Assembly (NCBI GenBank): GCA_016699365.1
Contig: CP064973.1
Location: forward strand, 139,920 to 203,919
Length of the DNA: 64,000 nt
Source: Candidatus Nomurabacteria bacterium
GTDB lineage: Bacteria; Patescibacteriota; Minisyncoccia; Phycocordibacterales; UBA9973
Reading direction: 5' to 3'
Below are positions 9,195 through 53,943 of the stretch, piece after piece; positions within the stretch are counted from its first letter, which is position 1, and every line of letters begins with the position of its first letter. Position numbers and translations under genes: made by a program. Under the pieces are notes generated by a model, which had not been told where the DNA came from, did not search any database, and saw only the letters and a list, made by a program, of their open reading frames with translations.

Positions 9195-10358
9195 TTATTT
9201 AAATACCTCTTTCATCTCCCCTGCTATCAGATTCCAATCATATTTCTCAATCACCATCGACTTCGCATTTTCTATAATGCGATTTTTTTGTTCAGGATTA
9301 TTTTCAAATCTCATTATTGCTTCTGCAATACTTTTCGGGTTTTCTACTTCACAAAAGTATCCTGTCTCTCCATCTTTCAAAAAGTCTGGTATCCCACCGA
9401 CAGATGTTGCAACTACTGGCAAACTTATTGCCATAGCTTCTAGAAACGAATTGCCCAAGCCTTCTGAAAGTGAAGGTCTCACAAATACATCTGAAATTTT
9501 CAAATACTTTGGCATTTCACTGTGTGGTACATACCCGAGAAAAATAACCCGAGCTTTTAGATGTAAACTGTCAGCTTTTAGCTTTAAATCATTCTCGAGT
9601 GGGCCGTTGCCTAGCACCAGAAAAATAAAATTCTCTGGCAAATATTTTAGTGACTCGATTATATCCCCCACTCCGTTTTTCTTTACGAGACGGGACGTTG
9701 TAATAATCACTTTTTGAGATTTATTTATACCCAATTTTTCCTCTAAAGTCGTGATCTCTCTTAGATCATAATTTCTCGTAAATAAAGATACGTCCACTGC
9801 ATTTGGAATGACCACCGGAGTATCTCGAAATCCCATACTTTTACCGAAATCTGCTAGGTATGTAGATATAGCCTGTATGGTGTCAGCATGGGTAAAAATA
9901 CGCTTCCAGAGTGGGTATACGAGCGCTACACGACGCTTTATGTAGGAAATGGGATCTCCTTCCTGAAGTGTCAAAATGAAGCGTATTTGAGGGTATTTTT
10001 GCTTGAAAAACAAAGCTCCGAACCCAGCATAGTTGGCCATAATCGCCCACATACTTTGGAAACATATCTGCTTCTCGAGTCTCTTTGCTTTCATGTACGA
10101 CTGAAATGGAAATAGGTATTTTGAAATCTGAAAAAACACCTTTCCGACAACAGGAATACCCAGTAGATACGGCCCTACTCTGTGCACTGTAATATTGCCT
10201 ATTTGTTCAACTCGCTTCCGGTCAGTGCGCATAGTTACCATGAAAAAGCTCGCTTCGTCTTTGCCGATACGATCTGTGATCTCTTTCACTGCGACCTCTG
10301 CTCCCCCGACAAAGTTTGGGTAGTATACAAGCGAGAATATTAGAATCTTTTTATTCAT
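9195..10358 (-). CDS. Glycosyltransferase family 4
   Basis: MNKKILIFSLVYYPNFVGGAEV... and SLSEGLGNSFLEAMAISLPVVATSVGGIPDFLKDGETGY. Confidence 0.8.
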   Translation of the reverse strand: MNKKILIFSLVYYPNFVGGAEVAVKEITDRIGKDEASFFMVTMRTDRKRVEQIGNITVHRVGPYLLGIPVVGKVFFQISKYLFPFQSYMKAKRLEKQICFQSMWAIMANYAGFGALFFKQKYPQIRFILTLQEGDPISYIKRRVALVYPLWKRIFTHADTIQAISTYLADFGKSMGFRDTPVVIPNAVDVSLFTRNYDLREITTLEEKLGINKSQKVIITTSRLVKKNGVGDIIESLKYLPENFIFLVLGNGPLENDLKLKADSLHLKARVIFLGYVPHSEMPKYLKISDVFVRPSLSEGLGNSFLEAMAISLPVVATSVGGIPDFLKDGETGYFCEVENPKSIAEAIMRFENNPEQKNRIIENAKSMVIEKYDWNLIAGEMKEVFK

Positions 10359-17213: not shown

Positions 17214-18128
17214 CTATATAAGTGAGTATTTTGACCAACGCTTCTCCCCTGTCTTTTTGAGAATATTGTCCTTTACAAGAGCGGTTAATTCACGCTGAAG
17301 TGTCTTTTCGCTACAGTTCTTAACTATAAGAGAAATGTCCTTTACGGTTACTGAGTTATTGTTCTTTAGTGCTAATAGTATTGAATTTCTTCGCTCATTT
17401 TTAATTGCTATATCAACTTTTTTAGATTGACCTGCTTGCTTGTCCTTTTTACTTTCTGTGTTTATGTCTTTTATATTTTTTGTATTAGTGTGTCCTTTAT
17501 AAAAATCGTTTGTTGCAGGACCGGACTGTCCTTGACCATTAGATTTATTTAAAAATATCTTTAGTAGATTATTCTCTTCCGATATTTCAGTAGGTTCACT
17601 TTTAAATTCTTCGCTTGGTCCGAAAGTAAAATTTTTCAAAAAATCAGCTCTTTCTAGATCTAAAGATTTCAATCCTTCTATTGTAAATACAGACTTATTA
17701 TTTTGAATTCTGAGCATAACTAAGTCACTTGAAAGTTTGGTAAGTTCCCGCATTAAAACACTACTGTTCATGGTACCTATAAGTCCAACTATTTGAGATA
17801 TTTCTAGAAAAGAAAGTAGGCTTCTGATTATTTGCTCAGCAGATTCAATTTCAAAGTTTGTCTTTATTGCTGTTTTATTGTCCGTTAGACCAATAGTTTT
17901 TAGAAGGTCCAAAGATGATGTCCTTAATGAACTTTTCATTGGCTCTCCGTCTTCTATGCATTCTGTGACCATATATAAAGCAGTAACTATCTTCTGTGTC
18001 CTTTTAAGCAAAGAACTGGCTTTTGTATTCTGGGCTTTATTTTCAACAGAGAATACAGGAGAACCTATTTCCCCTTCATTTCTGTTTTCTATGTGACTAT
18101 TAGACGAGATGTCCTTTTTAATATCCAT
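17214..18128 (-). CDS. Hypothetical protein with C-terminal winged-helix (DeoR/HTH_11-like) DNA-binding motif
   Basis: C-terminus NSVTVKDISLIVKNCSEKTLQRELTALVKDNILKKTGEKRWSKYSL matches the HTH_11/DeoR-type wHTH pattern. The N-terminal 230 aa have no recognisable motif. Confidence 0.35.
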   Translation of the reverse strand: MDIKKDISSNSHIENRNEGEIGSPVFSVENKAQNTKASSLLKRTQKIVTALYMVTECIEDGEPMKSSLRTSSLDLLKTIGLTDNKTAIKTNFEIESAEQIIRSLLSFLEISQIVGLIGTMNSSVLMRELTKLSSDLVMLRIQNNKSVFTIEGLKSLDLERADFLKNFTFGPSEEFKSEPTEISEENNLLKIFLNKSNGQGQSGPATNDFYKGHTNTKNIKDINTESKKDKQAGQSKKVDIAIKNERRNSILLALKNNNSVTVKDISLIVKNCSEKTLQRELTALVKDNILKKTGEKRWSKYSLI

Positions 18129-18263: not shown

Positions 18264-20470
18264 ATGTTTATCATGGCAAAAAATATAGCTAAAAATAGCA
18301 AGAAGGGTGATGTTGGTAAAAAGACCTCTTCTGATGTAAAAAAAGTGCCTGTTTCTAGATTAAAAGATGAGACAAAAAATGGAGTTTACGCGATATTGTG
18401 TCTGACTATAGCATTCTTTCTACTTCTATCTCTTTGGAACAATGCTGGCGTAGCTGGATCATTTTTCTACAATTTATTTTCAAAATTATTGGGTGTTGGA
18501 TATTATCTACTTCCAATATTTTCTATCGCTCTTGGTATATCTTTTCTTAGATCCGAAAGACCTAGTTTGGCACTAACGCACTCCATAGGAACTGCACTCT
18601 TTTTTATATCTGTTTTAGGTATTATCGATATTGTAGTTTTATCAAACACCTTACCGGGTGGATACATAGGACGGATAATCGCATGGCCTTTTGTCGCACT
18701 ATTTGATACATATGCAAGTATTTTATTTTTAGGAGCACTACTAATAATCTCAATATTTATATTATTTGATACTCGACCAAACATGGGCACACTTCCTGTT
18801 CGGGTTAGAAATTTCTTGTTTGGTAAAAAAGACAACGAAGAAGAAATGGAAACTGAGGCATATGTAGCCAAACCAGAAGACACCACAAATCCTGAGCCAG
18901 AAAAAATAGAAGAAATAAAAAAATCTGAACCAGAAACAAAAAAGAAAGATGGCAAAGATTCTGTGGCAGACGAAGAATTCGTTTTAGCTAAATCAAAAAA
19001 TAAAGCTAGTACTTACACTCCCCCACCTCTATCACTTCTAGAACCAGACAAAGGCAAGCCAAATGTTGGAGACATAAAAGCAAACGCAAATATAATTCAG
19101 CGCACTTTAGCAAACTTTGGAATTATAGTAGAGATGGATGAGATAACTATCGGACCTACTGTTACAAGATACGCACTGAAGCCTGCCCAAGGTGTGAAGC
19201 TTTCTCGTATCGCAGCACTGCAAAATGACCTAGCTCTCGCACTTGCCGCCCATCCTATACGTATGGAGTTGCCTATTCCTGGAAAGTCACTCGTGGGAAT
19301 AGAGATCCCGAACAAAACAAAATCAACTGTCGGTCTCGGTGCACTTCTTGCAGATCCGAACTTTATAAATTCTCCAAAACCTTTGATATTTGCACTTGGA
19401 AGAAATGTTGCGGGTAAGCCTACTCATATAAATATAGCCAAAGCTCCTCATGCCCTTATTGCGGGTACAACTGGATCTGGTAAATCTGTCACCATACACG
19501 CACTTATTACTTCACTTCTATATAGAAACGGACCTGAGGACCTAAAATTCATAATGGTGGATCCAAAACGCGTAGAACTAACTCTATACAACAAGATCCC
19601 CCACCTTCTTACGCCTGTTATTACTGACGCCAAGAAATGTATATTGGCGCTTAAGTGGGCAGCAAAAGAAATGGAAAGACGTTATGACATACTACAGAGT
19701 CATTCTGTTCGAGATATTGAGTCATACCATGACAATATATATGCCAAAAAACCAAAAGATAGTGAAGAGATTATGGACCGTATGCCTTATATAGTTATCA
19801 TAATCGACGAGTTGGCTGATATTATGCAAGCTTATCCTCGTGAACTAGAGAGTGCTATCGTTCGCCTAGCACAAATGTCTCGCGCTGTCGGAATACATCT
19901 TATACTCTCTACTCAGAGACCTGAGGTAAACGTGATCACAGGACTTATCAAGGCAAACGTACCTACTCGTATAGCTCTACGTGTTCCTACTCAAGTAGAC
20001 TCTCGAACAATTCTAGATACAAGCGGAGCTGAAAAACTTCTAGGAGCTGGAGATATGCTCTTCTCTGGAGGAGAAGGTCAACCAGAACGTCTACAATCTG
20101 CATTTATATCAGAAGACGAGGTCAAAAAGTTGTAAAATATCTATCAGAAGCATTTAGAAACGAAGTTCCAGGTGACGATATAGCTTTTTCGGGTCCCCTA
20201 ACAAGCGAACCTAGTATATTTAGCGCGACTCTAGACAACGATACTAGCGAGGATGATGATTTATATGAAGAAGCTAGGCAAATAGTTATAGAAACACAGA
20301 AAGCTTCAACTTCATTCCTTCAGAGAAAACTTGGTATAGGCTACGCAAGAGCAGCTAGACTAATAGATATCCTAGAAGAAAGAGGTGTAGTCGGTCCTGG
20401 TAATGGAGCAAAACCTAGAGAGGTCCTGGAAAAAACTGCTGAAGCAGAGCAATCTGGATTTACTGGATAA
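18264..20470 (+). CDS. ftsK: DNA translocase FtsK/SpoIIIE. It is interrupted by a -1 frameshift in the A5 run at 20124-20128, and the gamma domain is encoded in another frame up to 20470.
   Basis: N-terminal TM segments, Walker [10 protein letters not shown] and Walker [12 protein letters not shown]. The track ORF ends ...SEDEVKKL*, but the -1 frame continues [17 protein letters not shown]...[59 protein letters not shown] (the FtsK gamma winged helix). One extra A in caaaaag restores ...[13 protein letters not shown]... Confidence 0.8.
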
Positions 20471-20831: not shown

Positions 20832-21889
20832 ATGGCATTCAAAAAAACAGCCCCAAAAGAAAAGAAGCAAGTAGGAATGGAGATTGAAGATACAATTCGT
20901 TCCATTCAAACAAAATTCGGAGAAGGTGCAATTATGAAACTTGGTGACACACCAAAAGTAGACATAAATACTATTTCTACTGGATCGCTCGGGCTTGATA
21001 TGGCTCTTGGAGTTGGTGGTGTCCCCCGCGGACGTATAATAGAAATATTTGGACCAGAATCATCTGGAAAAACAACTCTTGCGCTTCACATAGTTGCCGA
21101 AGCACAAAAGACTGGAGGTGTTTGTGCATACATAGACGCAGAACATGCAATGGATCCAGTTTATGCAAAAAATCTTGGTGTTAAAACAAATGAACTTCTA
21201 ATTTCTCAACCAGACACAGGAGAGCAAGGTCTTGAAATATGTGAATCACTTGTACGATCTGGAAAAATCGACGTAGTAGTAATAGACTCAGTTGCAGCTC
21301 TTACTCCAAAAGATGAAATCGAAGGTGATATGGGCGCTCAGCACGTGGGCAAACAAGCTCGCCTAATGTCCCAAGCTTTGCGAAAACTTACAGCAATCGT
21401 TGCTCGATCAAAGACAACTGTTATTTTCATAAACCAAATAAGAATGCAGATTGGCGTAATGTTTGGAAATCCTGAAACTACACCAGGAGGAAAGGCGTTG
21501 AAATTCTATACATCAGTTCGACTAGATATACGTCGCATAGCTCAAATTAAAAAGGTGAAGAAGTTGTAGGAGGGCGCACACGAGTAAAAGTAGTAAAAAA
21601 TAAAGTTGCCGCTCCATTTAAACAAACTGAGTTCGATATAATATACGGAGAAGGAATATCCCGCGAAGGTGAACTAATGGCTTTAGGTGAAAAACTTGGA
21701 ATAATCACAAAATCTTCAGGTGGTTCATATGAGTACAAAGGCAAAGATGGCGAAGGTGCAGTGAAACTTGGACGAGGATATGACGCAACACGTACGTTTT
21801 TGAAGGAAAATTCAAAACTATCTAATGAAATTTTGAAACAAGTTAAATCTCGCTTTGGAGAAATACAAGTTTCAAGTAGTGGAGAGTAA
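20832..21889 (+). CDS. recA: Recombinase RecA. It is interrupted by a -1 frameshift in the A5 run at 21549-21553.
   Basis: [13 protein letters not shown] Walker A and a typical RecA core. The track ORF stops at ...[12 protein letters not shown]. The -1 frame continues [45 protein letters not shown]..., the canonical RecA C-terminal half, ending at 21889. One extra A restores ...IKKGEEVVG... Confidence 0.85.
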
Positions 21890-21912
21890 TAAAAAAAGAC
21901 ACTAGCAAGAAT

Positions 21913-23407: not shown

Positions 23408-23422
23408 TCTTTACAAAAAAAG

Positions 23423-28574: not shown

Positions 28575-28648
28575 TTTTATTTTACAAGATATTACAATAT
28601 ATAAATATTTTTGTCAAAAAGAAAAACCGGAACGATCCGGTTTTATAC

Positions 28649-29137
28649 CTATATGGAGATAAAGTCTTCAGCTTTCCCATTTTTTGTAGCTTTCAATACT
28701 TTGAAGCCAACACCTTGTCCATGGATAATATGGAAATAGTATCCATTATATTCCACCAAGGACGTTGTGAATTCGTTGGGAGTATATTTATCCAACTTTC
28801 TTCTCAAATTAACTTCCTTTCCATTATCTTGAGCAAAATAGAAAGTTCGGTAAAGATTCTTATTTGGATGAGGTTCTATACCTTTGCTCATTAGCCTCCT
28901 CTTATAAGACTCATTATGAGCTTTTCTCAGGCGGTCCATCCACTCATCAAACCTATCCTTTTTAATTACATTTTTAATAAACTCCTTTTCCCAATTATCC
29001 CAGTCAAGTCTAGCTCTGCGTTTCCTGGCTTTTTCCAGAGATAAAATTTTCCTTAATGCCTTTTGTCCTTCTGGGCTATCTAAAAAGTCCAAGGTTTTAC
29101 TAGCCGCTCTGTTAGAAAATTCACTTTTTTTCCCCAT
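28649..29137 (-). CDS. Hypothetical basic protein
   Basis: 162 aa, K/R-rich, no recognised motif. Confidence 0.3.
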   Translation of the reverse strand: MGKKSEFSNRAASKTLDFLDSPEGQKALRKILSLEKARKRRARLDWDNWEKEFIKNVIKKDRFDEWMDRLRKAHNESYKRRLMSKGIEPHPNKNLYRTFYFAQDNGKEVNLRRKLDKYTPNEFTTSLVEYNGYYFHIIHGQGVGFKVLKATKNGKAEDFISI

Positions 29138-29185
29138 TACTAAAATTTTTTATCAGAATACCCCGACATACCCCAAAAGTCAAAT

Positions 29186-30625
29186 CTACCCTACTCTCAA
29201 AAATAGAGGTTGTTCTGGTTTTTTATTTAGTCTTAAATTTTTTTCAATTTCTTTTGCTGTTTGTGGGAGCATAGGAATTATCATTTTTTGAATTTTCCAA
29301 AGTCTTTTAACGCACTCAGTTATTAAGTCTTTTCCTTTTTGTTCATCATCTTTAATTACTTGAAAAGGTTTATTTTCTTGAATAAATTTATCTGTCTCTG
29401 ATATATGATGCCAAACTATATTCATAGCAAAACTTATATCAAAATTATCCATGGAAGAATTGAAGTCAGGAGCTCTGTCTATTCCATCATCCACAATAGG
29501 ATCTTCTAAATACTTTTCAGAAAGTGTTAGTATTCGTGATGTCAGGTTCCCCAATCCATTTGCAAGACCGGCGTTGTATGCGTCTTTGAATCGCTCAAGA
29601 GTAAACGGAGAATCTTCGAAACTAGAAACTTCTTTTAGTAAGAAAAATCGCAACGCATCTACGCCATACTCACGAGCAATGTCTTTCGGGTCAACAGTGT
29701 TCCCTAGACTCTTACTCATCTTTACCCCACCATCTGCTGTTATGTGCCCGTTTACTATTATCTGGTGAGAGTTTGGTAAGTCTGCAGCCATAAGCATCGC
29801 CTGCCACATACTAGCCTGGAAGCGAGTATTGTCTTTACCACAATACTGAGTCGGTGTTCCGTTTTTCCAGTATTTTTCAAAAGTTTTCATATCAGTCGGA
29901 TATCCAACGTTTGCTATATAGTTCACAAGCGCATCGAACCATACGTACATCACGTGCTCAGGATTACCAGGGACTTCTATTCCCCATGGCATTTTGGATT
30001 TAAGACGTGAAATAGAAAAATCTTCAAGTCCGCGCTCGACAAAAGCCCTCACTTCATTGAAACGAAAGTCTGGTATTACGAAGTTTGGATTTTTCTCATA
30101 AAAATTTTTCAACTTTTCAGTAAAGGCAGAATACTTGAAGAAATAGTTTTCTTCGTCTATAAGCTCTAGTTCCATATTTGAATGATCGGGACACTTACCA
30201 TCTACAAGTTCTGAATCTGTCTTTTCGCTTTCACAACCAACGCAATACTTTGTCTGATAGTTTTTCAGATATATGTATCCATTTTTCTCTACCGTGCTCC
30301 AGAATTCTTGTGCGGCCTTTATATGTCGCTCGTCAGATGTTCTTATAAAATGAATATCGTTCTTTACTCCAAAAAGTTTTACTGATTCATAAAATTTTTC
30401 TACGTTTTCATCTACAAAAGTTTTTACATCTTTACCTTCGCTCTCAGCCTTTTTAAATATCTTGCTACCGTGCTCATCTGTGCCAGAATTGAAAAAAACT
30501 TCCTCACCTACAAGTTCATGATATCGAGCTACGGAATCCGCGCGGATAAATTCGAGCGCGTGCCCCATATGTAGTTCCGCGTTAACATACGGCAACGTTG
30601 TTGTTATGTAAAAAGGTTTAGACAT
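29186..30625 (-). CDS. metG: Methionyl-tRNA synthetase (core, no C-terminal EMAP domain)
   Basis: PYVNAELHMGHALEFIRADSVARY (HMGH) and KMSKSLGN. Confidence 0.9.
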   Translation of the reverse strand: MSKPFYITTTLPYVNAELHMGHALEFIRADSVARYHELVGEEVFFNSGTDEHGSKIFKKAESEGKDVKTFVDENVEKFYESVKLFGVKNDIHFIRTSDERHIKAAQEFWSTVEKNGYIYLKNYQTKYCVGCESEKTDSELVDGKCPDHSNMELELIDEENYFFKYSAFTEKLKNFYEKNPNFVIPDFRFNEVRAFVERGLEDFSISRLKSKMPWGIEVPGNPEHVMYVWFDALVNYIANVGYPTDMKTFEKYWKNGTPTQYCGKDNTRFQASMWQAMLMAADLPNSHQIIVNGHITADGGVKMSKSLGNTVDPKDIAREYGVDALRFFLLKEVSSFEDSPFTLERFKDAYNAGLANGLGNLTSRILTLSEKYLEDPIVDDGIDRAPDFNSSMDNFDISFAMNIVWHHISETDKFIQENKPFQVIKDDEQKGKDLITECVKRLWKIQKMIIPMLPQTAKEIEKNLRLNKKPEQPLFLRVG

Positions 30626-34903: not shown

Positions 34904-34949
34904 AACCCGCATTCGCAAAATTTAAAGCGAAGCGGGTTTTATTTTTTTT
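34904..34949. terminator. Bidirectional intrinsic terminator between convergent genes
   Basis: aaacccgc(a)ttcgc-...-gcgaagcgggttt is flanked by A and T runs. Confidence 0.55.
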
Positions 34950-40300: not shown

Positions 40301-40345
40301 AGTACTTTTTTTATCAAAGTACTCTAAAAAGATATGCTTGTCAAT

Positions 40346-40768
40346 CTATTTGGAATCTATATTTATAGGGTGGTATTTGCGCCAGTATTTTCTCCATGGA
40401 GTGTAGAGTAGGAATATGAGTACACCAGCGAGCGCTGAGTATGCACCGAGAATTAGAAAATATAAAAACCAGCAAAGTTCTTTCGCATAAAAATAATAAT
40501 TGAGTTTGTAATAACAGTGTACATCGGCAATACTTGTTGTCTTTTTCTTGTGCTCTTCCCGCTCCTCGAGGCGACTAGCAATAGATGTGTGACAAAATGT
40601 GAAAAATACTGCGAGTACACCGAGCCACTCGATCGGACCTTTTCCTGAAACTGCTCCGACAAAAAGCAGAGCAATCAAAACAAAAGCATATTCAACATGG
40701 TATGTTCTACATTTAAAAATAGACTTTATTTCTTCGACTGTCCTGATTAGAAGTGGGGTATGTTTCAT
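40346..40768 (-). CDS. Hypothetical small membrane protein
   Basis: 140 aa, 3 hydrophobic segments. Confidence 0.3.
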   Translation of the reverse strand: MKHTPLLIRTVEEIKSIFKCRTYHVEYAFVLIALLFVGAVSGKGPIEWLGVLAVFFTFCHTSIASRLEEREEHKKKTTSIADVHCYYKLNYYFYAKELCWFLYFLILGAYSALAGVLIFLLYTPWRKYWRKYHPINIDSK

Positions 40769-40769
40769 A

Positions 40770-41351
40770 CTATTTCATCATTTCTCTTAATACATCTAAT
40801 GCTTCCGGAAGTTCGCGCACATTATCTAATCCTGTAAAATGACCTCGCTCGTGAAGCGTGATAGTTTCCGCATTCAATTCTTTTTCAAGTAAAATTTTAT
40901 TTTCTGTGAGCAATACATACGGATCATTGTCGGAAAAAATACCTGCGATTTTATCAGTGTGTATACGGATGTGATTGAAACTGATCGGAGTTTTTAACCA
41001 AGGTGTCGCAATATCTGGAGATTCTCCATCATCTAGACTCTCTAAGGTGAATACAAACCACGGTGCAATAAGTAAAATACCTCCGATTTTTATATTCTCT
41101 GGGAGAGTTGCAATATATCGAAGCGTCGTCTGACAGCCCACACTGTGTCCGACAAAATAAGTATCTTCATCTGGGAGCCCTACTGAATTTCCTAGTGCAG
41201 GAACCCAGTCTTCTATTGTCGGTGTATCAGGATGTGGCATAAGAGGCGCTATGACCTCGCAACCCTCGCTTTCCATAGATTCCCTGATCCATTTGAGCAT
41301 TGACTCATCAGGACTACCACCCCAACCGTGTGCAATTATGATTCTTTTCAT
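40770..41351 (-). CDS. Serine hydrolase, YdeN/RBBP9-like alpha/beta hydrolase (Ser_hydrolase family)
   Basis: MKRIIIAHGWGGSPD... N-terminus and FVGHSVGCQT nucleophile elbow. About 190 aa. Confidence 0.6.
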   Translation of the reverse strand: MKRIIIAHGWGGSPDESMLKWIRESMESEGCEVIAPLMPHPDTPTIEDWVPALGNSVGLPDEDTYFVGHSVGCQTTLRYIATLPENIKIGGILLIAPWFVFTLESLDDGESPDIATPWLKTPISFNHIRIHTDKIAGIFSDNDPYVLLTENKILLEKELNAETITLHERGHFTGLDNVRELPEALDVLREMMK

Positions 41352-41352
41352 A

Positions 41353-44300
41353 TTAGTTTATTCTAATCTTTTCCTCACCATCTCCAAATGTGATATCCGA
41401 AACTCCTGCGGTCTTTTTCAAATCTTCTTCAAACCCTTGAACTGTTTCCTTGTATTCATTTGCAAGCGTAAGCTTAATAACATCACTAGGTTTCAAGCCT
41501 TTTTCTTTTCGCATGTCTTGGATAGAGCGGAGTAGCTCACGATAGTCTCCTTCACGTTTTAGTTCGGGAGTTATATTTGTGTCGAATGAAACTTCACTTC
41601 CAACTTCAACATCTTTTACATTTAGCTCGTCTTTTATTATTTCTACAAACTCAGAAGATAATTTTTCTTTTACAAAGAAAGTAGCGAGTGGCTGTCTTAG
41701 AGGAATATTTAATTTTTTTCGAATAGAATTTCCTTCAGTACAAAGATCTCGAACTTTTTGCATCTCTGATATTATTTCTTTATTTATTTTTCCTGCTTTT
41801 GGCCAATCACACAAATGAACTGACTCGACATCACTCTCAAGTTTCAATTTCTGCCACATGTCCTCTGCACTAAATGGTGCAAATGGTGCAATAATTTTCG
41901 CCAATGTTTTTAATACAACATACATAGTCATCTTTGCTGAAAGTGACCCGTCTTTCAATCTGTCTCGTGAACGGCGAAGGTACCAAGTCGAAAAGTCGTC
42001 GATAAAGTCGCGTGTTGCACGCACAGGTTCGAGAAGCTTGAAATTGTCTAGGTTATTTGTTGAAAGTTCTACAAGCTGGTCTAGCCTAGCGAGAATCCAT
42101 TGATCCAAAACAATTGTTGTAGATCTAACTTCTTTTTCTGCATCTATCTCAGCATCTCTTTCTCGATAAAGTTCATAGAAAGCTAGTACGTTGTATAGAA
42201 GTCCGAAGAACTTACGATGAAGATCAAGCACTGTTTTCTCGTCGAAGTTTTTTGAGTCTCCTGGCTGGTTTACAGAATACATCCACAATCTGAGTGTATC
42301 TGCACCATACTTCTCTATCATCTCCCAAGGCTCCACGATGTTGCCAAGTGACTTACTCATTTTCTTGCCCTCTGCGTCTAGGATGTGCCCAAGACAGATT
42401 ACATTCTTGTATGCCTTGCCAGTGCCCATAAGCGCTCCTATGGCGTGAAGTGTATAGAACCACCCTCGAGTCTGGTCGATGGCCTCACAGATGAAATCTG
42501 CTGGATAACCACGAGTCTTTTTGAAGAATCCTTTTTAGGCTGAAAAACATTTTTGTCATTTCCAAATGGATAGTTGTCTTGCGCGAAAGGCATCGCACCA
42601 GAGTCGAACCACACATCCATAACCTCTTTTACACGCTTGAACTTTTTACCGTCTTTTTCTAATTCAACAGAGTCGATAAATGGCTTATGTAAGTCGAGTT
42701 CAAAGTTTTCGTTGTGAGGAAGAGGAGTAAAATCTAATTTTCTAAATTCTCCATTTTGTAAATATCTATATTCGCTTTCTTTTTGAACTATTCTTAAAGA
42801 TTCTTCTGGTGTATATCCGCTTGCACCAGAAAAGAGTAGCCATGCTGGCCCACCATGTGTGACTATAAGAATATTTTTTCCAGCATATTTACTATCTAGT
42901 TCATACAGAAAATTTGTTACTCTTTTCTTTATTTCATTATGAGATTCCCCTCCAGGCATTTTCTTATCGAAATTTTCTGGTATTTTAGGTAAAGCTTTGT
43001 GGAATTCTGACCATTTTGTTCCACCAAAATCTCCAGGATTAAATTCTCCCAGCTCATCATGATAAGAAATACTTTTTTCATCTAACCCTAGAACATCTTT
43101 TACAATACTAGATGTTTCTTTGGTTCTGATAAATGGCGAAGAAACAATAAAATCTATTTTTTCAGACTTCAACATCTCTGCATATTTTTTTACCTGCAGC
43201 TTACCATTTTCATTTATATGGTCTTTTGCATCTTTATTTACACTTATTGAACCAGTTAGATTATTGTCAGATTCTCCATGCCGCATTACAAAATATTTAT
43301 TTCCACTTTTCTTTGTATATTTCTTGAGTGTATCGACAGAGTCGACAACTATTCGCTCGCCGTCTTCTGCCTCCCATATCGGAAGTGGGGTTCCCCAATA
43401 CCGCTCACGAGATATCGCCCAGTCTTTTACTTCACGAAGCCATTCACCAAAACGTCCGTCTTTTATATGACTTGGTTCCCATTTAATACTATCGTTTTCT
43501 TTAAGTAATTGATTCCTGAGTTTTGACATTCCGATATACCAAGAATCCCGCGCATAATATATAAGCGGAGTTTTGCATCTCCAGCAGTGTGGATATGAGT
43601 GCTCGTATTTTTCTTTCTTGAATAGAAGCCCCCGGTGTGCGAGGTCCTTAATGATATCTATCGCAACTTCTTCATCCTTTACAAATCGTCCTGACAGAAA
43701 ATCCATACCTTCCAAGAAATGTCCATCTTCTTTTACCAAATGGAACTTCGGCATACCGACTTTTGTTCCGAGTTCGAAGTCTACTTGTCCGTACATGACT
43801 GCGGTGTGCACCAAACCTGTTCCGTCAGTAGTTGTAACGAAGTCTGCAGAATGCACTTTGTATGCATTTTTCATATCTATATCTTTTGGAGCAAGATTTT
43901 TGAAATACGAATACAGTGATTCATATGATAATCCAACAAATGCTTTGCCTTTCAATTCCTCTATGATTTCATATTCACCTTCGACTATAGAGAGTCTTTC
44001 TTTAGCAAGAATCAGAATATCGTTTTCTTTTTTTATTTTTACATAATCGATATTCTCCCCCACCGCAAGACCTACGTTTCCCGGAAGTGTCCACGGAGTT
44101 GTAGTCCATGCTAGAAAATATGTATTCTCCTGACCAACAACTTTAAACTTTGCAGTCACCGATAAATCTTTGTCATCTTGATATCCTTGTGCGAGCTCAT
44201 GCGAAGAAAGTGCAGTTCCACAACGTGGACACCAAGGAAGAACTTTGTAGTCTTTGTATAAAAGTTTTTTCTTTTCTGTTTCTGCCAAAATATTCCACAC

Positions 44301-44780
44301 AGATTCGATATATGAATTGTGATACGTGACATATGGATTCTTGTGGTCCACCCAGTATGCAACACGGTCAGTGAACTTTTCCCATTCGTCGATATATTTC
44401 CAGACAGATTCACGGCACTTCTGATTGAATTTCTCTACACCATATTCCTCGATTTCCTTTTTGGATTTGAGACCCAGTTCTTTCTCGACCTGGAGCTCCA
44501 CAGGAAGTCCATGTGTGTCCCAGCCACCTTTGCGACGAACATGGTACCCTCGCATAGTTTTGTATCGAGGTATAGCATCTTTGAAACAGCGAGGTTCGAG
44601 ATGGTGCAGTCCTGGCATACCGTTTGCAGTCGGAGGTCCGTCGAAGAATACGAACTCCCCTTCTGGAGAATCCTTTGCAAGGGTTTTACTGAAAATATCT
44701 TTCTCCTGCCACAATTTCAAAACTGCTTCTTCTCTTAAAGCTGATTCGGATTTATTTGGTTTTTGGTTTTCTTCTGACAT
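41353..44780 (-). CDS. ileS: Isoleucyl-tRNA synthetase. It is split by a -1 frameshift in the T5 run at 42532-42536 and carries an inserted histidine-phosphatase (PGAM-like) domain.
   Basis: N-terminal PPTANGMPGLHH, CP1 editing motif TTTPWTLP, then DWAISRERYWGTPLPIW, the DVWFDSG motif, and KMSKSLGN in the downstream ORF. One extra A restores ...[48 protein letters not shown]... Confidence 0.85.
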
Positions 44781-44825
44781 ATTGACAAATTATATTATAG
44801 ATGGTAATTTTAAAAAAAATATTGT

Positions 44826-45038
44826 ATGAAACATATTATAAATTTCATCTTTGGCACAATTGGCGGCATAATAATTACACTGCTTATTGTAGGAGTAACA
44901 GCTTTATTTGATGATCAAATGAAAAAAGTTCCTTGGGAAGCAGTCCTCTTTGAAGGAATAATAATGGGTATACTTTTTGCCATATCAAGATACTTTAGTG
45001 ATAAAGATGACAAAAAGAATGATCCACATGTATTCTAA
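44826..45038 (+). CDS. Hypothetical small membrane protein
   Basis: 70 aa, 2 TM. Confidence 0.3.
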   Translation: MKHIINFIFGTIGGIIITLLIVGVTALFDDQMKKVPWEAVLFEGIIMGILFAISRYFSDKDDKKNDPHVF

Positions 45039-45267
45039 ACAAAAAACTCGTCCTAAAATTACGACAAAAGTCATAATTCAAGGACGAGTTTCTTTTTTTA
45101 TCCAAGAAATCGTGGTACCACCTCGGTTCCCCTTTCGGGCTTATTACAGCTTTTACGGGCTTGCCCGCTGGGGTCTACTTAATTTCTTCCCAGAGCATTG
45201 GAGTTGATATCTCCTAATCGCGCTTATACACTTATACTATATAAAATGAGAAAAAATGCAATAAAAC

Positions 45268-45293
45268 AAAACCCCGGAATTCCGGGGTTTTAA
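45268..45293 (-). terminator. Intrinsic terminator
   Basis: aaaaccccgg-aat-tccggggtttt. Confidence 0.6.
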
Positions 45294-45296
45294 ATT

Positions 45297-45638
45297 TCAA
45301 TTCAATTTGGGGTAAAGCGAACGCCAAGCTATTTCTGCAGATTTATCAGTAATCAATAAATTGTCATTGTTGTCGAAATACAATTCATGCCACAGATCAA
45401 ACGCATACTCATCATCATCTGAAGCAAGGAATAAATCAAATAAATGCTTTGCTCCTGGTACGCCAACTGGTTTTTTTAAAAGTTCATATTTTGATTTAAA
45501 AAATCTTTTTAAATCTTCAGCAGATAGAAACTGAGCTGAAGTTCTTTTAAATTCTTTCTCGAGCTCATCGATTTCAGTCTGTGTGTATAATTTTTCCATA
45601 ATTCTACGATTTCCGAAACTATATATCCTGGCGCACAT
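45297..45638 (-). CDS. Hypothetical protein (likely start MEKLYTQ...)
   Basis: About 100 aa, no motif. Confidence 0.3.
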   Translation of the reverse strand: MCARIYSFGNRRIMEKLYTQTEIDELEKEFKRTSAQFLSAEDLKRFFKSKYELLKKPVGVPGAKHLFDLFLASDDDEYAFDLWHELYFDNNDNLLITDKSAEIAWRSLYPKLN

Positions 45639-45664
45639 TAAGTCAACAGTGTTACAATAGCTAC

Positions 45665-45907
45665 ATGGATCTCTTGTCTTTTTCTCAAAATATACTTGGA
45701 TATATAACTAATCCTGAAAATATAATTTTTGTTTTTTGGGTGATTGTACTTATAGTTATATTTATATCTCTAATTATGATACTTCATTGGAAACAATATG
45801 CTGAAAATATATTAGGCGGTATTGTTTTGTTTACTGTCTACGGAATCGGAGTATTTATATTAATCAGTAATATTTATCAAAAATTACAAACATTTATCGG
45901 TGTATGA
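45665..45907 (+). CDS. Hypothetical 2-TM membrane protein
   Basis: 80 aa. Overlaps the downstream gene by 4 nt. Confidence 0.35.
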   Translation: MDLLSFSQNILGYITNPENIIFVFWVIVLIVIFISLIMILHWKQYAENILGGIVLFTVYGIGVFILISNIYQKLQTFIGV

Positions 45908-46434
45908 AATTAAATCCTGGAGAAAAGAAAATAGCAGTATTTCGCAAACATTGGTTTTATCTCGGACTAGAGGCTCTGATGTTTGCACTAATCGCAATAC
46001 TTCCCTACCTGATGGTATATTTTGGTGGGATATACTTCGATATTTCTATCCCCGAGCGGTTTGTGCCTCTGTATGAACTCTTTTATAGTCTGTGGCTGGT
46101 GTTTGTATGGGTTGGATTCTTTGTTTCGATCACAAACTATCTACTTGATATATGGATACTCACATCTGAGCGACTCATAGATGTGGAACAGTTTGGACTT
46201 TTTTCTCGTAGAATATCTACTCTGCAGATTGATAAAATACAGGATGTGACCGTAGCTGTATCTGGAATAATTGAGGAGATTATCAGTAGTGGAAATGTTT
46301 CTGTACAAACTGCTGGTGAAACTCATGAGTTCCATATACCACACGCTCAGAATCCTGAAAAAATGAAGGAGAGAATACTGACTGTAGTTCGAGTAAAAGC
46401 CAACGAAATAAAAACTGTTAGAATAGAAAATTAG
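45904..46434 (+). CDS. Membrane protein with bacterial PH-like domain (bPH_2/DUF304, YdbS-like)
   Basis: Two TM segments followed by ...ERLIDVEQFGLFSRRISTLQIDKIQDVTVAVSGIIEEIISSGNVSVQTAG..., typical of DUF304. Confidence 0.5.
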   Translation: MKLNPGEKKIAVFRKHWFYLGLEALMFALIAILPYLMVYFGGIYFDISIPERFVPLYELFYSLWLVFVWVGFFVSITNYLLDIWILTSERLIDVEQFGLFSRRISTLQIDKIQDVTVAVSGIIEEIISSGNVSVQTAGETHEFHIPHAQNPEKMKERILTVVRVKANEIKTVRIEN

Positions 46435-46468
46435 AAAAACCACCCATTAAAAAGGTGGTTTTATTTTT
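46434..46468. terminator. Bidirectional intrinsic terminator
   Basis: aaaaccacc-cattaaaaa-ggtggtttt. Confidence 0.55.
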
Positions 46469-47013
46469 TAAAACAGAAAAAGTTCGTACGAGCACATAGA
46501 GTTGTAACTATGCGTATCGACAACCTTCTGTTGGTCTTCGAACCCGTAGATTATTCTGTAGCCATATGTAACAGGTGTACTGTTAGATGTTATAAGCATG
46601 ATTGATTTTATCTTGTGGTCGTTTGTGGCGACAAGATTGTATCGGCGTACCTCATGCAGCATATCATTCCAATAAATATGTTTCTGCGGATTGTCTGTGG
46701 TCATGGTAAGTCCATCTGGATGACGAGGATTTTCGGTGTAAAATATCTCGTCTAGAGTGGCCATCACAATCTCTTTTTTTATTTTCGCATCTCTTGCAAA
46801 GATGGATTTTTTGAAAAAAATAAGTGTGACTATTCCAAAACCAATAGTTGCAATTATAGGCAACAACAACTGCTGTATATTTTCCGCAAGTGTAAAATTA
46901 TTTAGGGATATACATGTTAAAACCAGGGCTACTAACCCAATGAAAAGGTTATTCCTTTCATTTTTTGTGAGAGGGTTTTTTTCCTCAATCCGAGCTTTTT
47001 CGATTTGATTCAT
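46468..47013 (-). CDS. Hypothetical membrane-anchored protein
   Basis: One TM, then a 100-aa soluble domain. Confidence 0.3.
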   Translation of the reverse strand: MNQIEKARIEEKNPLTKNERNNLFIGLVALVLTCISLNNFTLAENIQQLLLPIIATIGFGIVTLIFFKKSIFARDAKIKKEIVMATLDEIFYTENPRHPDGLTMTTDNPQKHIYWNDMLHEVRRYNLVATNDHKIKSIMLITSNSTPVTYGYRIIYGFEDQQKVVDTHSYNSMCSYELFLF

Positions 47014-47080
47014 TTTTTGTTTTTTTTGGTGAACTTTATCAGTGTTATATTAACACATAATATGATTTTAGTCCAATATT

Positions 47081-47110
47081 AAAACCGTCTCACAAATGTG
47101 GGACGGTTTT
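47081..47110 (-). terminator. Intrinsic terminator
   Basis: aaaaccgtc-...-gacggttttt. Confidence 0.5.
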
Positions 47111-47115
47111 TAGGT

Positions 47116-47811
47116 CTAATATTCTGTTTCTAGGGGTTCTAGCTTTTCATCTATAATACCCCCTTCGATAAGCTCCTCCTTGTAACGCTCCCAGAAGGAA
47201 CGAAGGAAAGTAACTCTCTTTTGGGCAAGTCTTTTGCCTTCGTTTGTACTCATTGTTTTAGCTACAACAAAAAGTCTTTTCTTAAACAATTCTATGCTTG
47301 CACCAACTTTTTCGGTTACTTCACCTGCACACAGAGGATCAAGCGGATTATAAAACGGCCTGTTCATCTCTCCACCAGAACTAAAAGTACGCATAATAGC
47401 AAGAGCTCCAACACTTTCAAGCTTGTCTGCGTCTTGTAAAATTGCGGATTCCCAGGTAGATGGTTCAATGCCGTTTGAAAAAGAGCATTCTTGTATGCAA
47501 TCTTTGACTCTTTTTATTTTTATCTCTGGGTATCCAGGGACACTTTTTAGTAAGACTTCCGCCAAGTCCGCGCTCTTACTAGGTGCAAGATTGTTCCTTG
47601 GGTCATCCTTACGGAAAATTACCGAGTCGTGAAAAATAAGTGCGGGGATCAAAATATCATAATCAGTTACTTGTATTGTCTCGCTCTTTGCTATTCGCAT
47701 TCCGAGGTTAAATACACGCCGCATATGCTCAAGATCATGAGATTTGTCATGTTCGCCTATGTGAGGCATAAGCAATCTAAAACAATCAATCATCAATTTG
47801 TTTTTGTCCAT
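47116..47811 (-). CDS. HD-domain metal-dependent phosphohydrolase
   Basis: H...HD...H...D pattern: SHDLEHMRRV, LIFHDSV and LQDADKL. Confidence 0.65.
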   Translation of the reverse strand: MDKNKLMIDCFRLLMPHIGEHDKSHDLEHMRRVFNLGMRIAKSETIQVTDYDILIPALIFHDSVIFRKDDPRNNLAPSKSADLAEVLLKSVPGYPEIKIKRVKDCIQECSFSNGIEPSTWESAILQDADKLESVGALAIMRTFSSGGEMNRPFYNPLDPLCAGEVTEKVGASIELFKKRLFVVAKTMSTNEGKRLAQKRVTFLRSFWERYKEELIEGGIIDEKLEPLETEY

Positions 47812-47855
47812 TTAAATAACTTTTTTAGAACAATAACAGATTGTGCCGAATTAGT

Positions 47856-49571
47856 CTACATTTTTTCTGGAGCTTTTATGCCTAAGATATATAAACCGTT
47901 CTTTTGAATTGTCGCAAAGGCACTTGTTATCATGACTTTATAGCCACTTGTTTTGTCTGTGTCATCCACTATCTGAGTCTCGGCATAAAAAGAATTGAAA
48001 CTGCGAGCAAGCTCTACCAAATATGAAGCAATCGCATGTGGAGCGTATTCTTTGTAAGCCATTGCCACAACTTCTGGGAATCTGTACAACAGTCTTTCTA
48101 TCTCAAAAATACTTTCTGTAGGACTATCGGCGGAAATTTCTATAGAAGCCGTTTTTGCCTTTTCTATAATTGACCTAGCGCGAGCATGAGAATAGGAAAG
48201 ATATGGCCCTGAATCACCTTCAAAAGAAAGTGATTTATCAAAATCAAAAATTATATCTCTACCTGTCGCTTGTTTTAAGACGGAATATTTCAAAGCTGAA
48301 ACTGCAATATCATTCACAAGATTTTTGTCTTCTGCTCTGTTACTCTCTTTCATTTTTTCTGCTACTTTTTCTCCAATATCAGAAAGCAAGGAATCCCCCG
48401 TTACTACATCTCCAGTACGAGAAGACATCTTACCTGTAGGAAGACGGAGCATCCCGTGGGATATATGTTTGGTTTTTTTGGCTAAGTCTGGAAATACTTG
48501 ATTCATTGCTTCGAGTAACACACGAAAATAGTCATTGATCTCATTGCCTGTTACTACGATTGATTCATCGTAGCCGTAAGTATCAAATTTAATCTTTGAA
48601 AGACCCAATTCTTTTGCTTCGTATGTTGGAAGACCTTGGGAATTTATAAAAACACGAGTATGGAGTTTTGGGTTATATTTCTCGCCCTTAAAAACAATCG
48701 CACCATTTTCACCATTTTCAAAAACCCCGTTTTCTATGTTGGACAAAACTATATCTTTACCAAATTCTCCAGTTTTACTTTCAAAGAAATAAAAATCAAA
48801 TTTTGTTCCAAGCTTTTTATATATCTCTTCAAAATATTCCAAACTCTTTGCTCTTCCAAGGTCATAGAATCTATTTATTTCAGAATCAGACCTATCATAT
48901 ATTTTTTTATTAAAATCTTTGATTGTATTTTTATCCTCTTCGGTATCCCCCTCAAGTTTTGAACCGAGCGCATAGCAAGAACCCAAGAATTTCGCCCAAA
49001 CCTCGATTGGAGCCTCTTCACTCGGCAAGCTGTCTTTATTTTCAATCATCCCAAAAATTGCTTTTGCTACATGCAACCCTACGTCACCTTGGTAACACGC
49101 ACGTTTTATTTCTGCCCCATTCCATTCAATTATGCGAGAAAGTGTCTCACCTATTGTATTGCTCATCAGGTGTCCTATATGAAATTCTTTGAATGGATTT
49201 GGGTCTGTATATTCTATTATCACCTTTTTACCAGAAAGAGTATCTGTTTTACCAAAATTTTGATCATTAAAAATATGGTCGATTGATTGTATAAAAAATT
49301 GATGGGACAAATAAATATTTATAAACCCAGCACCCGCGACTTCTACCCTGTCTATCTCTTTTGGTAAATCAGACTTTATCGAATCGACAATTTCCTGAGC
49401 CACTTCTTTTGGATTCTTACCAACCTTTTTTGAAGCAATTAGAGCTATGTTTGTAGAATAATCACCGTTCGACAAATCTGCCGGGTGTTCCCAGTTTATA
49501 TCTATAGATTCTATCCCCAAGACCGCTACTCTGGCCTTTATTTTTTCACTTAAAACATCTAGTACTACCAT
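47856..49571 (-). CDS. argS: Arginyl-tRNA synthetase
   Basis: N-terminal Arg_tRNA_synt_N-like domain, FHIGHLMSNTIGETL (HIGH) and a C-terminal DALR anticodon-binding region. 571 aa. Confidence 0.9.
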   Translation of the reverse strand: MVVLDVLSEKIKARVAVLGIESIDINWEHPADLSNGDYSTNIALIASKKVGKNPKEVAQEIVDSIKSDLPKEIDRVEVAGAGFINIYLSHQFFIQSIDHIFNDQNFGKTDTLSGKKVIIEYTDPNPFKEFHIGHLMSNTIGETLSRIIEWNGAEIKRACYQGDVGLHVAKAIFGMIENKDSLPSEEAPIEVWAKFLGSCYALGSKLEGDTEEDKNTIKDFNKKIYDRSDSEINRFYDLGRAKSLEYFEEIYKKLGTKFDFYFFESKTGEFGKDIVLSNIENGVFENGENGAIVFKGEKYNPKLHTRVFINSQGLPTYEAKELGLSKIKFDTYGYDESIVVTGNEINDYFRVLLEAMNQVFPDLAKKTKHISHGMLRLPTGKMSSRTGDVVTGDSLLSDIGEKVAEKMKESNRAEDKNLVNDIAVSALKYSVLKQATGRDIIFDFDKSLSFEGDSGPYLSYSHARARSIIEKAKTASIEISADSPTESIFEIERLLYRFPEVVAMAYKEYAPHAIASYLVELARSFNSFYAETQIVDDTDKTSGYKVMITSAFATIQKNGLYILGIKAPEKM

Positions 49572-49596
49572 AATCGAGATTCTATCATAAAAAAGA

Positions 49597-49626
49597 AAAA
49601 ACTCCTGTTATGGGAGTTTTGTTTTT
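49597..49626 (-). terminator. Intrinsic terminator
   Basis: aaaaactcc-tgttatg-ggagtttt followed by a T-run. Confidence 0.55.
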
Positions 49627-50407
49627 AAAAAATTTTGACTTTAGGCTTGTCCAGTTTTTTCACCACTTCTTCAATATAAGAAGTTTCGTATTTTTGACTT
49701 TCTAGAAAAATTTTTATAACAGATACAGGTATTTTGTTCTTGTAATACTTATATCTTTGGTGTTTAATTTTCTGCCTATCAAATAAATCGACGAGCATTT
49801 TGCTCAAAGATTCAATTCGCATTCCAGAAGACTCATCGCCATACTGATCTATTTGAATCGCCTCTTTAAACCGCTCGATTGGAAAAGATTTTTCAATTTC
49901 TGGCTTGTATACCTCTACTTCCCTATTGTGATGAATCTGAAAAATAGAATTGCCGTCTTTTTTCTCTTCCAAAGTAAAACCTTCAGATAAAAGATATTCA
50001 TAATACTCAAAGTCTTCACTCAAAAATTTATCGAGTAAATCTTTCAGTATGAAAAATTCAACATTCCAACTATCAAGAGGATTATACTCTTTGTACTTAT
50101 TCTTGTAGAAAATCAACATCGAATGCGTACTTCTTGCTTCTTTATCAAATCCCAAAAGAGTACTTATATCCTTCAAAATTAAGACCTTTTCAAGATGCTC
50201 AAGCAACTTGATACACAGCAAAGCTCTACACATAACTCTATATTTTGCCCTAGAACCCTTTTTCCCAGAGTACAAAATTTCTGTTTCTGTTATAGAGAGT
50301 CTGGGCTTACTGGACTCTACTATGGATCTCAGAATTATACTTGCGAGTTTTCTGTCAGAGTCTTTAAGAATTCTCTTTTTTAGAAAGCGTCTTTTTTTTC
50401 TAGCCAT
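49625..50407 (-). CDS. Hypothetical protein with basic N-terminus
   Basis: 260 aa. MARKKRRFLKKRILK... No motif recognised. Confidence 0.3.
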   Translation of the reverse strand: MARKKRRFLKKRILKDSDRKLASIILRSIVESSKPRLSITETEILYSGKKGSRAKYRVMCRALLCIKLLEHLEKVLILKDISTLLGFDKEARSTHSMLIFYKNKYKEYNPLDSWNVEFFILKDLLDKFLSEDFEYYEYLLSEGFTLEEKKDGNSIFQIHHNREVEVYKPEIEKSFPIERFKEAIQIDQYGDESSGMRIESLSKMLVDLFDRQKIKHQRYKYYKNKIPVSVIKIFLESQKYETSYIEEVVKKLDKPKVKIF

Positions 50408-50471
50408 TTTGTGCTTTTTTTAACACTATACAAGAAACTAGATAAATGTAAACCATTAAAATACAAAATAA

Positions 50472-50498
50472 AAATCCCCCGATTTCGGGGGATTTGTT
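50472..50498 (-). terminator. Intrinsic terminator
   Basis: aaatcccccg-atttc-gggggattt followed by a T-run. Confidence 0.6.
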
Positions 50499-51092
50499 TT
50501 ACTTAACGAGAAATGGAGAAACTATTTCCCAAATATCATCATGAACTTCTTCGACTGATCTATTGGCATTTACAATACTCCAGTTAAATTCTTTGGCTAG
50601 ATCCAGGTGTATAAGCCGGATTCTTTCAGTTTTTTCATCGTCTGTTTCAAAACGATGCCCCGCTTCTACGCTATCCATAAATCTCTTGCCGTCGAGAAGA
50701 ACTGAAACTGTGGGCAGGAGTAGGTGCTTATTTATCTCTATCATATGATCCTTATTGAGGCCGTCACCTGTCCCGTATGCAATACCAGTTCCGGTATACA
50801 TCTCTGCAATCACAATATCAAGAGAGCTTAACATTTCTTTTAGTCTTGGCTCAAAATCAGATCTATTCTGAACATTTAACTCCTGCAAACCAAGAGCAGA
50901 AATATTATTAGGATTGCCCTGTTTCAGACACTTATGTATAGAAGGACCTGTCGGCTCAAGACTATAAATCGGATATTTAACATATGCAAAACTCTTGCCT
51001 TTGTTAATTAATTTTTCAGTCAAACGAATAAGTTGAGTAGTCTTACCAAGATTGGTCACACCCATTAAAGTAAAAAATATACCTTTCTTCAT
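50499..51092 (-). CDS. tmk: Thymidylate kinase-like P-loop kinase
   Basis: P-loop FFTLMGVTNLGKTTQ. DRY-like/LID segments align with Tmk: IVIAEMYTGTGIAYGTGDGL, HRFETDDEKTERIRLIHLDLAKE and NANRSVEEVHDDIWEIV. Confidence 0.65.
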   Translation of the reverse strand: MKKGIFFTLMGVTNLGKTTQLIRLTEKLINKGKSFAYVKYPIYSLEPTGPSIHKCLKQGNPNNISALGLQELNVQNRSDFEPRLKEMLSSLDIVIAEMYTGTGIAYGTGDGLNKDHMIEINKHLLLPTVSVLLDGKRFMDSVEAGHRFETDDEKTERIRLIHLDLAKEFNWSIVNANRSVEEVHDDIWEIVSPFLVK

Positions 51093-51152
51093 AAAAGAGC
51101 AGTTTTTGTTTCATAGACATTTATACTACAAATAAACAAAAAGGAAGTATTG

Positions 51153-52316
51153 CTACTTCCTTAAAACTGTGTTGATTTTTTGGGCGATTTTTATCATATC
51201 TTTCTCTGTTTTTCCTATCGTAGTTTCGGCTGCTGTGCCGAGCCTGATGCCGGATGGGTCAAATGGTGAACGAAGTTCAAACGGAATTGTATTTTTATTT
51301 ACAATAATTCCAGTTTTCTCCAAACGCTCGCTCGCCTCTTTTCCTGAAATACCTTTTCCATTCATCCATGTATCAACCAGTATCAAATGTGAATCTGTAC
51401 CACCAGACACAATCCTCCAACCAAGTTTCTTTAATTCAACCGCTAAAGCTTTTGAATTTTTTATAACTTGTTTTGCGTATTTTTTAAAACTAGGTGTACT
51501 CGCTTCTTTTAGCGCTACTGCGATAGCGGCAATCTGGTTTTCATGCGGACCACCTTGCAAACCTGGAAAAACTGCTTTGTCTATTTTTTCTGCGTATTGT
51601 TTTTTGGAAAAAATTATTGCACCACGCGGACCCCGCAATGTTTTATGAGTTGTAGTGGTTACAATATCTGCGTATTTAAAAGGACTAGGATAAACACCGC
51701 CGGCTACAAGACCTGCTATGTGTGACATGTCCACCAAAAGTAAAGCTCCGACAGAATCAGCAATATGACGAAATTTTTCCCAATCAACAATTCTTGGATA
51801 TGCAGTAAACCCAGCGACGATTATATCTGGTTTGTGGAGTGCGGCTTCACGTTTCAAATCCTCATAATCTAAAACTTCTTTATCTTTATCTACTGAGTAC
51901 GGAACTTGTTTCCAAAAAATTCCTGATGCTGAAACCTTGTGGCCATGTGTCAGATGCCCTCCACTTTCAAGTGACATACCAAATATTTTCCCCCCTTTTG
52001 GAACAAGCGCAGTATAGACTGCCAAGTTTGCCGGAGACCCAGACAAGGCCTGAACATTCACTCCCCACTCGTCCTTATTTAATTTAAATAGCTTCAAAGC
52101 TCGCTCCTGCGCCAATTTTTCAATCTTGTCTATTGTTTCATTGCCTCCATAATACCTTTTCCCAGGATAACCTTCTGCATATTTGTTTGTAAGCTCACTA
52201 CCGAGTGCTTCCAAAACATCTTTTGAAACATAGTTCTCTGAAGCAACAAGATTGATTACACTCTTCTGGCGCTTTTTTTCTTCTGATATTAGTTTTCCAA
52301 TCTGTAAGTCTTTCAT
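51153..52316 (-). CDS. glyA: Serine hydroxymethyltransferase
   Basis: PLP-lysine motif TTTTHKTLRGPRGAIIF. N-terminal ...VINLVASENYVSKDVLEALGSELTNKYAEGYPGKRYYGG. Confidence 0.9.
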   Translation of the reverse strand: MKDLQIGKLISEEKKRQKSVINLVASENYVSKDVLEALGSELTNKYAEGYPGKRYYGGNETIDKIEKLAQERALKLFKLNKDEWGVNVQALSGSPANLAVYTALVPKGGKIFGMSLESGGHLTHGHKVSASGIFWKQVPYSVDKDKEVLDYEDLKREAALHKPDIIVAGFTAYPRIVDWEKFRHIADSVGALLLVDMSHIAGLVAGGVYPSPFKYADIVTTTTHKTLRGPRGAIIFSKKQYAEKIDKAVFPGLQGGPHENQIAAIAVALKEASTPSFKKYAKQVIKNSKALAVELKKLGWRIVSGGTDSHLILVDTWMNGKGISGKEASERLEKTGIIVNKNTIPFELRSPFDPSGIRLGTAAETTIGKTEKDMIKIAQKINTVLRK

Positions 52317-52364
52317 TATGTTTTAGATATTAGCATGTAATCAAAAAAAGAATAAGTAAAAAAT

Positions 52365-52392
52365 AAAACCCCGAAAATCGGGGTTTTGGTTA
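52365..52392 (-). terminator. Intrinsic terminator
   Basis: aaaacccc-gaaaatc-ggggtttt. Confidence 0.6.
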
Positions 52393-52394
52393 TT

Positions 52395-53846: not shown

Positions 53847-53943
53847 CTATATTTAATTTTGGTGAAATTTGTCTTATTTCTACCTTAATTCTCTACCCAA
53901 GTCAACAAAAGAAAATCCGCCCCAAAATCGGGACGGATTAAAT

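Follow-up and report, generated by a model that had tools for sequence, protein, structure and literature searches.

The break in ftsK at this locus raises the question of whether the organism carries a truncated DNA translocase, makes a complete one from two reading frames, or has an ordinary gene that is misrepresented in the deposited sequence. Within the window, by which we mean the whole 64,000-nucleotide stretch of contig CP064973.1 that was analysed, the zero-frame part of ftsK occupies positions 18264-20135 (+) and encodes a 623-aa ORF with the 4TM, alpha and motor regions (Pfam FtsK_4TM, FtsK_alpha and FtsK_SpoIIIE, the last with E=3e-58), sharing 97% amino acid identity with residues 1-631 of the intact FtsK frame of two related contigs (L001 and L002; 743 aa from stop to stop, 735 aa as the called protein). 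This part ends at an apparently spurious stop codon (20133-20135) shortly after an A5 run (20124-20128, +) in the context gag gtc AAA AAG ttg TAA. The -1 frame, which is open from 20033 to 20467 and closes with a stop at 20468-20470, supplies the linker and the gamma winged-helix (20129-20470, +), and its match to Pfam FtsK_gamma (E=2.2e-29) is far above chance. The initial annotation had described a motor ORF that stops after the A5 run, with the gamma domain following in the -1 frame up to 20470, and had proposed that lengthening the run to A6 would give a continuous FtsK; coordinates and Pfam domains agree with the former, and the addition of one A indeed restores a single ORF encoding a 4TM-alpha-motor-gamma protein. 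The repaired protein has two intact homologues, P0001 at 98% identity (735 aa) and another at 91% (723 aa), and gamma is included in both. All the hallmarks of an FtsK/SpoIIIE translocase, namely 4TM, alpha, a P-loop motor and the gamma winged-helix, are present and distributed over two frames; once one A is added, the full architecture is shared with the canonical bacterial FtsK/SpoIIIE DNA translocase, from which the window gene differs solely by a split that is very probably artefactual. The gene that directly precedes ftsK lies on the other strand (17214-18128, -) and encodes a 304-aa protein with no recorded Pfam family; this neighbourhood is syntenic in all related contigs.

Two further housekeeping genes in the window are interrupted in the same manner. 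The initial annotation had claimed that the AAAAAG-context lesion recurs in recA and ileS, and A5/T5 splits were found in both. The zero-frame part of recA (20832-21569, +) ends at a spurious stop following an A5 run (ttAAAAAgg; 21549-21553, +), and the C-terminal part continues in the -1 frame (21554-21889, +); positions 3-228 of the RecA profile are matched in frame 0, and positions 227-262 together with RecA_C in the -1 frame. On the opposite strand, the N-terminal part of ileS (42438-44780, -) terminates in a 30-aa out-of-frame tail, the run being A5 on the coding strand (cctAAAAAgga) and T5 on the plus strand (42532-42536), and the -1 frame (41353-42531, -) encodes the end of the catalytic core, the anticodon-binding domain and DUF5915. 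Each of the three runs is read in the zero frame as AAA AAG, and one added A generates a single ORF in each gene. When all translated ORFs (80 aa or longer) of seven related loci were searched against the window by tblastn, covering about 43 kb of it, FtsK, RecA and IleS were the only proteins that switched frame, and neither same-strand overlapping open frames across the window nor the inspected junctions yielded a further convincing split gene. The frameshifted IleS product is already public: QQR76827.1 (780 aa), an ordinary NCBI CDS named 'class I tRNA ligase family protein' from Candidatus Nomurabacteria bacterium, is identical to it over 780/780 residues, including the 30-residue nonsense tail DSSKRLVVIQQISSVRPSTRLEGGSIHFTP. 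Since this entry was deposited with the tail, what appears to be an assembly error has now entered the protein databases.

Comparison with relatives, which the initial annotation had named as a check, revealed the longer run in every close relative (ftsK, 16 contigs; recA, 10; ileS, 5). The ftsK site, AAAAAG in the window, reads AAAAAAG in six contigs (L001-L006) from two lineages at 94.6% and 83% nucleotide identity, and A6 is also present in ten contigs at 98-99.5% nucleotide identity, comprising three NCBI MAGs and seven ENA SPAdes assemblies retrieved through exact look-up of a neighbouring 117-aa protein; all 16/16 independent contigs therefore carry A6. FtsK is intact wherever a close contig holds the whole gene (735 aa, or 732 aa in L089, where a later start was called), and across relatives at 83-99.5% nucleotide identity it measures 723-735 aa. 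RecA is 352 aa long in those of the ten close contigs that reach recA, and its site carries A6 in eight of the ten (L087-L094) as well as in L004 and L005. At the ileS site, five independent contigs (L097-L101) read CC-TTTTTT-AGG, as opposed to T5 in the window, at 98% local identity; the corresponding codons are CCA GAA AAA GG in L007-L009 and CCT AAA AAA GG in L012, and in 80/80 loci taken from more distant GTDB species genomes a single frame spans the junction. A truncated FtsK, RecA or IleS was encountered in no relative compared. Because the relatives carry the longer run or stay in frame, the deficit of one base is private to the window assembly at all three sites. The nearest relatives in this comparison are 0.5-2% divergent from the window, and none of them is an independent assembly of the identical strain. 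Two scans of JGI metagenome contigs returned 0 matches to the A5-or-A6 patterns of the ftsK and recA sites, exact searches with the truncated FtsK and RecA products, with three neighbouring window proteins and with QQR76827.1 returned no match in the index searched, and the best match in the genome-contig scan was 81%.

The sequences beyond the three runs show no sign of degeneration. After the A-run, ftsK differs from L001 at 21 nucleotides, 19 of them in third positions, with 0 amino acid changes; the C-terminal part of recA is nucleotide-identical to L087 and L090 (0 nucleotide, 0 third-position and 0 amino acid differences); and the C-terminal part of ileS shows 127 nucleotide differences from L097, including 87 in third positions, with 26 amino acid changes. 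Judged by this substitution pattern, purifying selection acts on the downstream frames. Relaxed constraint 3' of the lesions, which would mark a degenerating pseudogene, was not seen in ftsK, recA or ileS, and old pseudogenes are excluded because these nucleotide and amino acid difference counts show no decay.

The lesion is not restricted to coding DNA. Tabulation of all indels between the window and near-identical contigs disclosed three shortened intergenic runs: A7 followed by G at 21891-21897 (+; A8 in seven close relatives), A7 followed by G at 23415-23421 (+; A9 in five close relatives), and T7 after C at 45093-45099 (+; T8 in five close relatives), the last being an A-run followed by G on the other strand. 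Altogether, the six deficits of one or two bases (starting at 20124, 21549, 21891, 23415, 42532 and 45093) all fall in A-runs that precede a G. A census covered A/T runs of at least 6 with identical flanks and counted T-runs after C as A-runs followed by G; 5/36 runs in this context (~14%) were shorter in the window, versus 0/90 in other contexts (Fisher one-sided p=0.0015). Given this census and the affected intergenic runs, the lesion tracks DNA context and not codon phase. A lesion that is bound to context on both strands, in coding and non-coding DNA alike, is what a bias in base calling or in the consensus should produce, and not what a translational recoding signal should. Specificity for codon phase, considered as a possible pointer to translation, was rejected: the phase of the coding sites adds nothing, because 20/29 sites with A6 followed by G are in phase anyway and the lesion is found at intergenic sites too. 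The idea that A6 runs were undercalled throughout was likewise rejected, as the window retains 77 A6 and 93 T6 runs along with 17 in-phase AAA AAA G sites; the error would be only partial, since the majority of long A/T runs there have kept their full length. The region at 45243-54535 (9.3 kb) aligns at 99.3% identity and is gap-free. Some of the intergenic run-length differences could be genuine polymorphisms between strains about 1% apart. Only one homopolymer is longer in the window, an intergenic T8 at 34942-34949 (T7 in L097 and L098), which may be either a real polymorphism or an overcall.

The origin of the record offers a ready source for such an error. CP064973 is the circular MAG EsbW_18-Q3-R4-48_MAXAC.200_cln of 705,143 bp (Singleton et al. 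2021, PMC8012365, Supplementary Data 3), classified as Patescibacteria; Paceibacteria; UBA9983_A; UBA9973 and covered 9.4x by Illumina and 20.3x by Nanopore reads (PMC8012365). In the workflow of Singleton et al. (2021), the Nanopore reads were assembled with CANU and the result passed through Racon, two runs of medaka v0.6.5 and one round of Racon with Illumina reads (PMC8012365). Later work from the same research group reported that the Nanopore R9.4.1 consensus retains homopolymer indels that lead to frameshifts, and that bins under ~40x require Illumina polishing (PMC9262707). More generally, Cooley and Wright found that many pseudogenes in databases are artefacts dependent on platform, assembler and coverage (PMC11017572). 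The three window splits share with R9-era Oxford Nanopore homopolymer errors the one-base deletion in an A/T run and the splitting of several conserved genes (PMC9262707, PMC11017572, PMC8012365), as well as their absence from short-read assemblies of close relatives and their source in a low-coverage Nanopore MAG; they differ in the shortness of the runs, just 6 bases, and in the restriction of the losses to A-runs with a G after them (p=0.0015). A preference of Nanopore homopolymer errors for this context was not found documented in the literature; it could reflect a context bias of the pore model or of medaka, a base modification, or the behaviour of Racon at low coverage.

We consider it very probable that the ftsK break is a homopolymer undercall of A6 and that the gene is normal and continuous. 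The A5 at 20124-20128 would then be an A6 from which the deposited assembly dropped one base, and the real gene would be one continuous ftsK of ~735 codons encoding 4TM, alpha, motor, linker and gamma. The recA and ileS breaks almost certainly represent one missing A each and the same artefact; recA and ileS would have been split by an identical error, with at least three intergenic A/T runs shortened as well. The probable source is Nanopore assembly combined with low-coverage Illumina polishing, a workflow known to leave residual homopolymer deletions, and the reads themselves would be predicted to show A6. What was observed corresponds to an undercall in each respect: a change in homopolymer length, absence from independent short-read assemblies, non-coding cases and a long-read source. 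The suggestion of the initial annotation that a homopolymer undercall or polishing artefact is at work is hence borne out by the private lesion, the non-coding cases and the Nanopore MAG, but not in a blanket form, as only ~14% of the runs in the susceptible context are affected.

Three other readings accept A5 as real, and the first is translational. The initial annotation had raised -1 ribosomal slippage on the AAA AAG pair; on this reading, full-length FtsK, RecA and IleS would be produced through -1 slippage of tRNA-Lys, whether programmed or tolerated. AAG is a known shift-prone Lys codon, as exemplified by E. coli dnaX and IS911, and the window sites resemble the dnaX-type frameshift (A AAA AAG) in that AAA AAG lies in the zero frame at all three of them, the -1 frame encodes the remainder of the protein, a -1 shift restores the complete product, and the downstream frames are intact and conserved. 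The likeness ends there. The X XXY YYZ form is missing, with C AAA AAG in ftsK and T AAA AAG in both recA and ileS, so only the A-site codon can fully re-pair; 80 nt downstream of each site show no excess of stimulatory RNA structure over shuffled sequences (z = +1.35, +0.35 and +0.12); and no upstream Shine-Dalgarno-like element common to the three sites was seen by eye. Nor is the site conserved, the relatives being in frame at all three positions, and the sequence tests of this alternative are therefore negative with respect to heptamer, structure and conservation alike. Elsewhere in the window, about 31 in-phase AAA AAG sites require no shift, and translation cannot account for the loss of one base in intergenic A-runs followed by G. 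Moreover, the dnaX shift creates a shorter alternative product, whereas a shift in the window genes would give the only functional product, and the essential ileS would need near-complete frameshifting. If slippage were nevertheless true, ftsK, recA and ileS would hinge on efficient slippage at N AAA AAG, and this would imply a recent genome-wide tolerance of Lys-Lys frameshifts in a reduced-genome strain of Paceibacteria; we regard this as very improbable.

Equally improbable, in our estimation, are real inactivating or gene-splitting deletions that would leave FtsK without gamma and RecA and IleS truncated, as pseudogenes or split genes. Homopolymer slippage is the most frequent real indel mutation, E. 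coli FtsK without gamma is viable, and strains ~1% apart do vary at some intergenic runs. Yet this reading would place three broken, conserved housekeeping genes within 64 kb of a reduced 705-kb genome, one of which, ileS, is essential and single-copy, and it is at odds with downstream fragments that lack starts of their own and show no decay, and with relatives among which the truncation never occurs. A last reading would retain the real A5 and let RNA polymerase slippage add an A to a fraction of the transcripts, a mechanism known from Buchnera, Blochmannia and Thermus dnaX. It agrees with lesions that lie within an A-run and require exactly one added A. Known transcriptional slippage, on the other hand, occurs at A or T runs of ~8-9 or more, and the window runs, only 5 long, fall below that range; the arguments against a real A5 apply equally, and this reading seems to us scarcely credible.

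Under the preferred explanation, a base missing from the assembly, ftsK, recA and ileS are almost certainly intact in the organism, and the ftsK frameshift is almost certainly not a real biological feature. The biological weight of the finding is small, and its practical value lies in a flag on the CP064973 record and on the out-of-frame protein entry: the public record carries frameshifted housekeeping genes, and at least one out-of-frame product stands in databases. At a rate of three coding errors per 64 kb, the 705-kb genome would be predicted to hold a few dozen split genes, and these could distort analyses of gene content, completeness and pseudogenes in a 'closed' CPR genome. The bias towards A-runs followed by G may be of use in polishing older Nanopore assemblies.

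Two additional observations concern the ileS region. A histidine-phosphatase domain is present in full within IleS (Pfam His_Phos_1, E=4e-33; window positions 42783-43292, -), where it interrupts the catalytic core, with the WGTPLPIW motif on one side and DLHKPFID/DVWFDSG on the other, and with putative catalytic motifs recognizable by eye as RHG (FVMRHGES) and a second His (IVTHGG). PF00300 is present in 120/120 IleS homologues among the matches listed, and 80/80 Paceibacteria genome loci match IleS over its full length. A literature search pairing IleS with histidine phosphatase found no paper combining both terms among the results listed, and the arrangement may be an undescribed, lineage-wide fusion. 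In addition, the segments at 40330-45240 (the ileS region), 28616-29224 and 9207-10352 are only ~90% identical to strains that match the flanks at 99.3-99.5%, and the closest full-length IleS has 85% protein identity; such a mosaic pattern is suggestive of recombination or of the replacement of alleles, ileS included.
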